Positions 21,434-22,658 of a stretch of DNA of 64,000 nucleotides are shown here, piece by piece. The DNA comes from Escherichia coli. GTDB lineage: Bacteria > Pseudomonadota > Gammaproteobacteria > Enterobacterales > Enterobacteriaceae. The translations under genes and the position numbers were made by a program. Within the stretch, counting starts at the first letter, position 1. The number at the start of each line of letters is the position of its first letter. Location: assembly GCF_024502345.1 (NCBI RefSeq), contig NZ_JALDNN010000001.1; one strand, 5' to 3'. The notes beneath the pieces are model-generated. The model worked only from the letters and a program-made list of their open reading frames with translations, searched no databases and was not told where the DNA came from.

Positions 21434-22285
21434 GTGTTAATTATCGAAACCCTGCCGATACTGCGTCAGCAAATTCGCCGCCTGCGTATGGAAGGCAAGC
21501 GCGTGGCGCTGGTGCCTACTATGGGCAACCTGCATGATGGCCACATGAAGCTGGTCGACGAAGCCAAAGCCCGCGCCGATGTGGTCGTCGTCAGTATTTT
21601 CGTTAACCCGATGCAGTTCGACCGCCCGGAGGACCTGGCTCGTTACCCACGGACCTTGCAGGAAGACTGCGAAAAGCTGAACAAGCGCAAAGTGGATCTG
21701 GTTTTCGCGCCCTCGGTAAAAGAGATCTACCCGAACGGTACTGAAACCCATACTTACGTTGACGTTCCCGGGCTTTCGACCATGCTGGAAGGCGCGAGCC
21801 GTCCGGGGCATTTTCGCGGCGTTTCGACTATCGTCAGCAAGCTGTTTAACCTGGTCCAGCCGGACATCGCCTGCTTCGGTGAAAAGGACTTTCAGCAACT
21901 GGCGCTGATCCGCAAAATGGTTGCCGATATGGGCTTCGATATTGAGATTGTTGGCGTCCCGATTATGCGCGCCAAAGATGGCCTTGCGCTCAGTTCCCGT
22001 AATGGTTATCTGACGGCAGAACAACGCAAAATTGCGCCCGGTCTGTACAAAGTTTTAAGTTCGATTGCCGACAAATTACAGGCTGGCGAGCGGGATCTCG
22101 ATGAAATTATTGCCATTGCAGGGCAAGAACTGAATGAAAAAGGCTTCCGCGCCGATGATATTCAGATTCGCGATGCCGACACGTTGCTGGAAGTCTCTGA
22201 AACCAGCAAACGAGCTGTAATTCTGGTAGCCGCCTGGCTTGGCGATGCCCGCCTGATCGACAACAAGATGGTCGAACTGGCGTAA
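21434..22285 (+). CDS. panC: Pantoate--beta-alanine ligase
   Basis: GTG start; HIGH-like motif (MGNLHDGH) of pantothenate synthetase. Confidence 0.9.
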
Positions 22286-22380
22286 TACTTAACTGGCGCT
22301 ACGGCTGATGGCGCCAGTTATTAATTTGCCCTACGTCATGGCGATGACGTCTGTAAGTGATTATTCATATCGCTGGCAAT

Positions 22381-22590
22381 TTAGTTAGAGTTAATTAGCT
22401 TATCAATCTCTGTAAGAGGTAAAGTTGTCACCTCTGCAACGTCTTCCCGAGACATCCCTTTACTTAGAAAACGCTGGGCGAATTCCTGTCTTACCTTCTG
22501 GAGTTCCTCTTGATATCCCTTCTGAAATCCCTTCTCTTCAAACCACTGCGCCAACGTCTGCCTGGTTTCTCTCCGTGTCTTTATTTCCAT
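22381..22590 (-). CDS. Stand-alone Rpn C-terminal tail-like small protein (partial tandem duplicate of the rpnC 3' end)
   Basis: 69-aa ORF (..TLAQWFEEKG..SKGMSREDVAEVTTLPLTEIDKLINSN) closely parallels the last ~55 aa of the adjacent rpnC product (..TLAQWFEERG..NKGMSREDVAEMANLPLAEIDKLIN); DNA at 22381-22480 and 22659-22760 is clearly related. Confidence 0.55.
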   Translation of the reverse strand: MEIKTRRETRQTLAQWFEEKGFQKGYQEELQKVRQEFAQRFLSKGMSREDVAEVTTLPLTEIDKLINSN

Positions 22591-22658
22591 AGGTTCCCTT
22601 AATTATCTGGTCAGTTAACAATAACAATTATCTGGCTATAACTGATGATGCAGACAAC

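Follow-up and report, generated by a model that had tools for sequence, protein, structure and literature searches.

Sequence analysis of rpnCSs, a separately encoded second copy of the RpnC tail downstream of rpnC in Escherichia coli

The gap between panC and rpnC in the 64,000-nucleotide stretch of Escherichia coli DNA analysed here (the window) carries a 69-amino-acid open reading frame, ORF69, which is identified by homology as rpnCSs, a separately encoded second copy of the RpnC tail. The observation holds, although it is not new, the arrangement having been published before: rpnCSs was described by Zhong et al. (2023, PNAS 120:e2307382120; PMC10400941, Fig. 2I). Our reading, which we hold to be quite probable, is that rpnCSs encodes a translated tail protein of the RpnS class, is co-transcribed with rpnC, is probably non-cognate for the resident nuclease and forms a recombining pair with the rpnC tail. 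Beyond the main text of the 2023 paper, the analysis adds the frequency of the gene, its presence in E. marmotae, a near-universal mismatch in repeat number and concrete recombinant alleles.

Recognition of the Rpn nucleases as a toxin-antitoxin and anti-phage family is recent. The antitoxin is encoded inside the nuclease gene, and its specificity depends on how many four-residue repeats it has. The nucleases are inhibited by small proteins derived from their own tails, and these RpnS proteins are generally antitoxins (PMC10400941), as the first-pass annotation of this DNA had correctly stated. The same study demonstrated translation of RpnCS in K-12, reported that RpnS proteins dimerise via helix 1 and that the number of four-residue repeats varies among strains, and placed RpnCSs phylogenetically with RpnCS rather than with RpnESs (YpaA).

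Architecture of the panC-rpnC interval

Gene order in the window runs panB-panC (plus strand), rpnC (minus strand), panD and yadE. An interval of about 370 bp between panC and rpnC, compared with about 70 bp in K-12, had been claimed from a first reading; measurement gives 373 bp here, from the end of panC at 22285 to the rpnC stop codon at 22659-22661, and 73 bp in K-12 (MC4100). The arrangement indeed differs from that of K-12, which has one tail and no small ORF. The features of the interval and its borders are as follows.

21434-22285, plus strand: panC, the convergent neighbour (ORF list, RefSeq annotation)
22290-22320, no strand assigned: G+C-rich hairpin between the convergent panC and rpnCSs (terminator scan, inverted repeat)
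22381-22590, minus strand: rpnCSs (ORF69), 69 aa, free-standing RpnC C-terminal tail domain (ORF list, BLASTP, TIGR01784)
22591-22658, minus strand: spacer of 68 nt from the rpnC stop to the small-gene start (sequence; direct repeat)
22659-23531, minus strand: rpnC (RpnC-L), 290 aa, PD-(D/E)XK Rpn nuclease (Pfam, TIGR01784, RefSeq)
22659-22811, minus strand: predicted intragenic rpnCS, 50 aa, with an internal ATG ATG at 22811-22806 following GGGAGGGGAG (homology with K-12)

RpnC matches Pfam Transposase_31 (PF04754) over residues 7-207 with an E value of 2e-87 and scores 268.8 bits against TIGR01784 as a full-length Transposase_31/Rpn protein. In a genome identical to the window over a 701-bp query, RefSeq names it 'recombination-promoting nuclease RpnC'. 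The block comprising the internal Shine-Dalgarno sequence and ATGATG of rpnC is identical in the window, in K-12 and in two other strains. By homology with K-12, we infer that the intragenic rpnCS is the resident cognate antitoxin, whose product would inhibit the resident RpnC-L.

The 22290-22320 hairpin is located past the ORF, is common to panC and is kept in all alleles compared. It is the panC terminator, and it is likely also to mark the end of the rpnC-rpnCSs transcript. Between the small gene and the panC terminator lies another small hairpin, ACGTCAT GGCG ATGACGT at 22333-22350; part of it is deleted in K-12-type alleles, and it is replaced in alleles of the d1-7 type.

Resemblance of ORF69 to the RpnC tail

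ORF69 lies on the rpnC strand, opens with an ATG and the N-terminus MEIKTRRETRQ, and ends in a stop codon at 22381-22383. It had been described as paralleling the C-terminal tail of RpnC, and BLASTP bears this out: 40 of 64 aligned residues are identical (63%, E 1e-21) over RpnC residues 235-290, the last 56 of the protein, with one 8-aa gap, and the blocks TLAQWFEE and GMSREDVAE are the same in ORF69 and in the resident tail. The resemblance claimed at the DNA level between 22381-22480 and 22659-22760 likewise stands, with 81 of 94 aligned bases equal plus a 6-nt indel. A repeat finder reports two direct repeats, one of 112 nt (22389-22500 versus 22661-22772, 85% identity) and one of 51 nt (22508-22558 versus 22756-22806, 80% identity), whose offsets differ by 24 nt, that is, by two 12-nt units. 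The likeness of the gap to the rpnC 3' end is far beyond chance. Searching the 64-kb window by tblastn with ORF69 returned no match beyond ORF69 itself and the rpnC tail.

Profile searches place ORF69 at the end of the Rpn family model. It aligns only with C-terminal positions 213-273 of TIGR01784 (61 positions, E 2.8e-8). At least 120 homologues, nearly all from Escherichia, are found among the matches listed, and these are either RpnC tails or small proteins that begin MEIKTRRETRQ; no entry in the protein collection searched equals the 69-aa sequence exactly. Separately encoded RpnS proteins are annotated as DUF4351 in some species (PMC10400941). A Pfam-A scan of ORF69 gave no match to DUF4351 (PF14261), no match to HTH_Rpn_C (PF27070) and no other significant match, and the RpnC tail itself reaches DUF4351 at only E 0.04. 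PF27070 is recorded in the protein collection as a weak match on the commonest small-protein variant; it is 'weak' on P0052, which is 81% identical to ORF69, and not recorded on P0001, which is 99% identical. Set beside stand-alone DUF4351 and HTH_Rpn_C proteins, close variants of ORF69 thus carry a weak PF27070 match, whereas ORF69 itself has no significant Pfam-A match.

A search with PADLOC gave a weak match of ORF69 residues 21-67 to the model RmrA (E 5e-4, profile positions 290-336 of 357). RpnC had no PADLOC match, so Rpn systems are apparently missing from that 2023 defence library.

ORF69 has the features of an RpnSs gene: it is homologous to an Rpn nuclease tail, that of RpnC specifically, and it is a separate ORF on the same strand directly downstream of an rpn gene, polymorphic among strains. 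The published rpnCSs is likewise a second rpnCS copy directly downstream of rpnC and before panC in some E. coli strains only, derived from RpnC, built with four-residue repeats and subject to loss by deletion or by fusion with the rpnC body; there is no difference in kind from the gene in the window. The intragenic RpnCS shares with ORF69 a homologous domain, the strand and probably the transcription unit. However, RpnCS is by construction the same as the RpnC-L tail and is therefore always cognate, whereas ORF69 is encoded separately, begins with 11 novel residues, carries two additional repeat units and differs by eight substitutions in the last 27 codons.

Predicted structure

An AF2 model of ORF69 (mean pLDDT 70) has helices at residues 6-19, 22-43, 48-55 and 59-68, the first two of which make up one long kinked helix that is followed by two short ones. 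ORF69 would thus take the shape of a long helix bearing the four-residue repeats and then a small helix-turn-helix-like bundle. The model superimposes on the crystal structure of RpnA-S (7TH0) at 0.8 A over 41 alignment columns (chain length 46), with a TM score of 0.83 by target length; the Foldseek E value of 2.4 (rank 32) is non-significant, as expected for so small a domain. A sequence search of the PDB with ORF69 did not find RpnA-S and returned only a designed repeat protein and HTH-like chance matches. The product is predicted to be an RpnS-class helical protein that would dimerise through helix 1.

Repeat numbers of the two tails

Helix 1 of each tail contains a hypervariable stretch built from 12-nt units.

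22486-22533, minus strand: hypervariable stretch of the small gene in helix 1, between WFEE and EFAQR, four 12-nt units encoding KGFQ, KGYQ, EELQ and KVRQ (translation, TRF)
22758-22781, minus strand: hypervariable stretch of the rpnC tail, two 12-nt units encoding RGRQ and EERQ (alignments, linker table)

The RpnC tail of the window reads WFEE-RGRQ-EERQ-EFVLR and the small gene WFEE-KGFQ-KGYQ-EELQ-KVRQ-EFAQR, which is two units longer; TRF reports a period of 12 at 22511-22535. Across the homologues and loci collected, the linker from WFEE to [LF]L[SN]KG varies between 9 and 41 aa in four-residue steps and falls into two series that are 2 aa out of register. The window has linkers of 13 aa in RpnC and 21 aa in the small gene. 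Equal repeat number, the sequence prerequisite for an RpnS antitoxin, is therefore not what is seen in the window strain, which has four units against two.

The same lack of matching holds across the locus collection. Linker lengths are equal in one of the 59 loci in which both linkers are complete, many of which share ancestry and so do not amount to 59 independent trials, and in one of 33 distinct haplotypes. If the observed lengths were paired at random, 1.7 matches in 33 would be expected, and the probability of seeing one or fewer is 0.45. These figures show repeat numbers in the small gene and in RpnC that vary independently, with matching not maintained. The idea that mismatch is actively selected was rejected, since 1.7 expected against one seen is independence and not avoidance. 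In the commonest small-gene series, with linkers of 19 or 23 aa and no 'EF', the length is two residues off every RpnC tail length seen. Linkers in E. marmotae are 41 or 57 against 21.

These lengths bear directly on whether rpnCSs could serve as an additional inhibitor of RpnC. Inhibition is lost when a single repeat is added to either RpnCS or RpnC-LS, and it is kept only if both partners have the extra repeat (PMC10400941, Fig. 4D). With the repeat numbers mismatched, rpnCSs is therefore probably no spare inhibitor. Extrapolating from that one engineered +1-repeat mismatch on K-12 RpnC to the two repeats, or about 2.2 helical turns, and several substitutions found here, we suggest that rpnCSs probably neither pairs with nor inhibits the resident RpnC-L. 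At megablast sensitivity, the chromosome that equals the window across the 701-bp query has no second RpnC-type tail locus.

An alternative is that rpnCSs is a spare, decoupled cognate antitoxin whose product binds the resident RpnC-L despite the difference in repeat number and provides a separately regulated dose of inhibitor. A commentary in PNAS (PMC10400984) proposed this reading, with the separate copy as a 'decoupling for regulatory flexibility', and it agrees with the general role of RpnS proteins as antitoxins, with the 63% identity to the resident tail and its two identical blocks, and with the likely co-expression of two genes on the same strand with no terminator between them. It is nonetheless quite unlikely. 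If pairing were selected, matched linkers should be common rather than confined to one of 59 loci, the commonest small-gene series should not sit two residues off every RpnC tail length, and a mismatch of a single repeat is already enough to abolish inhibition. The helix 2-3 segment differs as well (EVTTLPLTE in the small gene, EMANLPLAE in RpnC), and the small gene shows far more variation in it than the rpnC tail does. The first-pass suggestion of an orphan antitoxin-like element is accordingly retained as regards a free-standing tail copy and weakened as regards an antitoxin of RpnC, given the mismatch of four units against two in the specificity helix. We favour a product that is probably non-cognate for the resident nuclease, and the mismatch survey, together with the recombination described below, sharpens the question of whether rpnCSs would inhibit the resident RpnC-L or only a length-matched one.

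Start signals and expression

A Shine-Dalgarno-like AAGGGA is present at 22595-22600, five bases 5' of the ORF69 ATG. The small gene starts nine codons upstream of the position that corresponds to the internal rpnCS start; that start (GGGAGGGGAGTCT ATG ATG) is intact in rpnC, and AGG CAG stands in its place in the small gene. A promoter and terminator scan found no consensus promoter and no terminator between rpnC and ORF69. The absence of a terminator leads us to infer co-transcription with rpnC and rpnCS. Transcription of rpnCSs would most likely occur by read-through from the rpnC promoter and the internal rpnCS promoter, and translation would start at a ribosome-binding site of its own.

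Within the spacer, a 10-nt sequence (AATTATCTGG, plus strand) is repeated perfectly in direct orientation at 22601-22610 and 22626-22635, with the copies 25 nt apart. Other strains (L079 and L080) have a 43-nt spacer variant in which one 10-nt unit is missing. A TTGTCT-N19-GATAAT element noticed by eye in the spacer is at best a weak promoter candidate and is not kept in the 43-nt variant.

The region lies towards the 3' end of the rpnC transcript, ahead of the hairpin shared with panC, where it could also act as an RNA or as a regulatory 3' UTR of rpnC and not through a peptide. Such a role is extremely improbable. An Rfam scan over the region found no family at gathering score and a single chance-level match on the opposite strand (E 0.45), and the conservation is of the reading-frame type, with in-frame 12-nt and 6-nt indels and a conserved start codon. 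The sole Rfam match at gathering score in the window is a full-length match to the tp2 sRNA family (RF02030) at 47272-47385 on the plus strand, with 103.9 bits.

Distribution and constraint

Occurrence was surveyed with a 103-nt query comprising only the small-gene N-terminus and the spacer, searched against 5426 complete E. coli genomes. This segment is present in 1555 of them (28.7%) and the gene is missing in the other 71%; matches are always chromosomal and nearly always single, with up to three spacer copies in one genome. An E. marmotae locus has the same spacer and the N-terminus MDIKTRRETRQ. Its occurrence in E. marmotae as well as in 29% of complete E. coli genomes, and the 80-86% identity of the copies, mark rpnCSs as an old polymorphism, neither a recent duplication nor a strain-specific accident.

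A long panC-rpnC gap does not in itself indicate rpnCSs. In the O157:H7 strain 7409 (L072:1287-1584) the gap is 298 bp and contains no rpnCSs; we considered and rejected a degenerate rpnCSs as its source, finding instead that about 200 bp of unrelated sequence has been inserted beside the panC hairpin. By its resemblance to the consensus (..ACTTACTTATGTAAGCTCCTGGGGATT..), this insertion looks like an ERIC/IRU intergenic repeat. A scan of genome contigs with the spacer pattern gave one match, CALXDF010000219.1 (L010), binned as an 'uncultured Oscillospiraceae' MAG. It carries an E. coli-type junction of rpnC tail, spacer and rpnCSs at a panC-side locus, with linkers identical to those of strain d1-7, and is probably a mis-binned Escherichia contig.

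Sixty metagenome contigs with the spacer were fetched in addition to the genome loci. Because the exact pattern used to find the loci takes in the Shine-Dalgarno sequence, conservation of that sequence is partly by construction. The ATG and the N-terminus MEIKTRRETRQ are kept in all 70 spacer-carrying loci, and the ORF is complete in 63 of the 65 in which the contig reaches its end, the truncated copies being those of L046 (17 aa) and L056 (40 aa). All indels in the small gene, of 12 nt or 6 nt, are in frame. Among distinct small-gene alleles, pN/pS is 0.49 over the 19 N-terminal codons and 0.59 over the final 27; the same 27 codons of the rpnC tail give 0.22. The samples are small and related, and the pattern by which they were ascertained contains the Shine-Dalgarno sequence. 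In rpnC the helix 2-3 segment hardly departs from EMANLPLAE, while the small gene has EVTTLPLTE, EVTALSLAE, EMATLSLTE and ELANLPLTE. The data fit a constraint on rpnCSs that would be weaker than, or different from, that on rpnCS, rather than clear neutrality.

The higher pN/pS of the small-gene tail is also compatible with relaxed constraint, and with a second alternative in which rpnCSs is a functionless, decaying remnant of unequal recombination, kept open only by occasional conversion from the rpnC tail. A remnant of this kind could explain the missing Pfam match, the lack of a promoter of its own, the two truncated copies, a linker length uncoupled from that of RpnC and the absence from 71% of genomes, with repeated loss by fusion or deletion. 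It would also agree with the PGAP annotation of the genome whose sequence equals the window across the 701-bp query, where the identical ORF is called a pseudogene ('missing N-terminus'). However, the start codon, the frame and the 11 N-terminal codons, for which rpnC offers no conversion donor, are intact in nearly all two-copy loci including that of E. marmotae; pN/pS is below 1 in the N-terminal part too; the 6-nt indels preserve the frame; and in the sister case, YpaA/RpnESs, the protein is translated. We regard a mere remnant as unlikely and continue to favour a translated tail protein. Elsewhere in RefSeq the ORF is labelled, depending on the genome, as a pseudogene, a hypothetical protein, a transposase or an RpnC/YadD family protein, or is left unannotated; given labels so inconsistent, the rpnCSs ORF deserves one name.

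Origin and recombination

By its alignment with rpnC, the small gene goes back to an old duplication of part of the rpnC 3' end, of which it is the distal copy. The first-pass annotation had proposed such a duplication, and both the ORF-RpnC alignment and the direct repeats support it. Homology with rpnC begins a few codons ahead of TLAQWFEE and continues for about 17 nt after the stop codon. The rest of the spacer and the first 11 codons have no detectable homology with rpnC upstream of the tail (local score 17, compared with 14.9 +/- 2.1 for shuffles). The small-gene copy has gained its own start codon, 11-residue N-terminus and Shine-Dalgarno sequence. A scar of gene conversion between rpn paralogs had been offered as another origin but is not supported; the partner is rpnC itself, and the tail sequence of RpnE/YpaA is unrelated in detail.

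Several alleles combine parts of the two tails. In P0120 and L075 the small-gene N-terminus is joined to exactly the RpnC tail of the window type, and the small genes of P0026, P0045 and L048 have a helix and an ending of the K-12 RpnC type. Conversely, P0096 and L073 (strain RIVM_C039227) are RpnC bodies with an RpnC-type linker and the small-gene C-terminus (..ATLSLTEVDKLINSN) found in two-copy strains such as L013, a structure that is the product expected of a crossover within LLSKGMSREDVAEM. These mosaic and fusion alleles show that the two tail copies recombine. In K-12, the tail (KGIEKGIQQG...KVINLI) aligns, together with its 3' flank, with the small-gene side, a pattern that would suit a fusion allele. 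However, an ancestral 3' flank is retained by the distal copy of every tandem duplication, and the alignment alone does not settle the direction.

The two tail copies would thus act as a recombining pair in which unequal exchange yields mosaic small genes, single-copy fusions of the K-12 type and possibly three-tail arrays, and exchange between the copies may feed tail diversity at the locus. L075, an 814-nt metagenome contig, contains in order a spacer, a 59-aa small gene, a second spacer, a 69-aa small gene and panC. It is possibly the reciprocal triplication product, a three-tail array, or else a misassembly. A search of complete genomes with L075:1-330 gave overlapping pieces over 279 bp and no true triple array.

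Exchange between the copies raises a further possibility, which we hold only tentatively: the small gene may be a stored alternative tail of another helix length, such that exchange would switch RpnC-L and RpnCS jointly to another repeat number and other surface residues. If so, the locus would provide a cassette-like change of specificity for a defence nuclease, single-copy alleles of the K-12 type would be spent fusions, and the same logic would apply to rpnE-ypaA.

A parallel case at rpnE

K-12 has a parallel to rpnCSs in ypaA (rpnESs), which follows rpnE. There too an rpn gene is followed by a short gap and a small ORF that repeats the tail, and the small copy is one four-residue unit (KLEG) longer than the RpnE tail. 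However, ypaA is of independent origin, and its tail sequence is unrelated to that of rpnCSs (MTIAERLRQEG... versus TLAQWFEEKG...). It also starts at the internal Met position, without a new N-terminal extension, and its gap is 12 nt compared with 68 nt. The RpnESs/YpaA product was detected in K-12 by SPA tagging in a study that tagged RpnESs alone and not RpnCSs (PMC10400941). The K-12 MG1655 reference (L071:2405-3502) annotates ypaA as a pseudogene although its product was detected in that 2023 paper.
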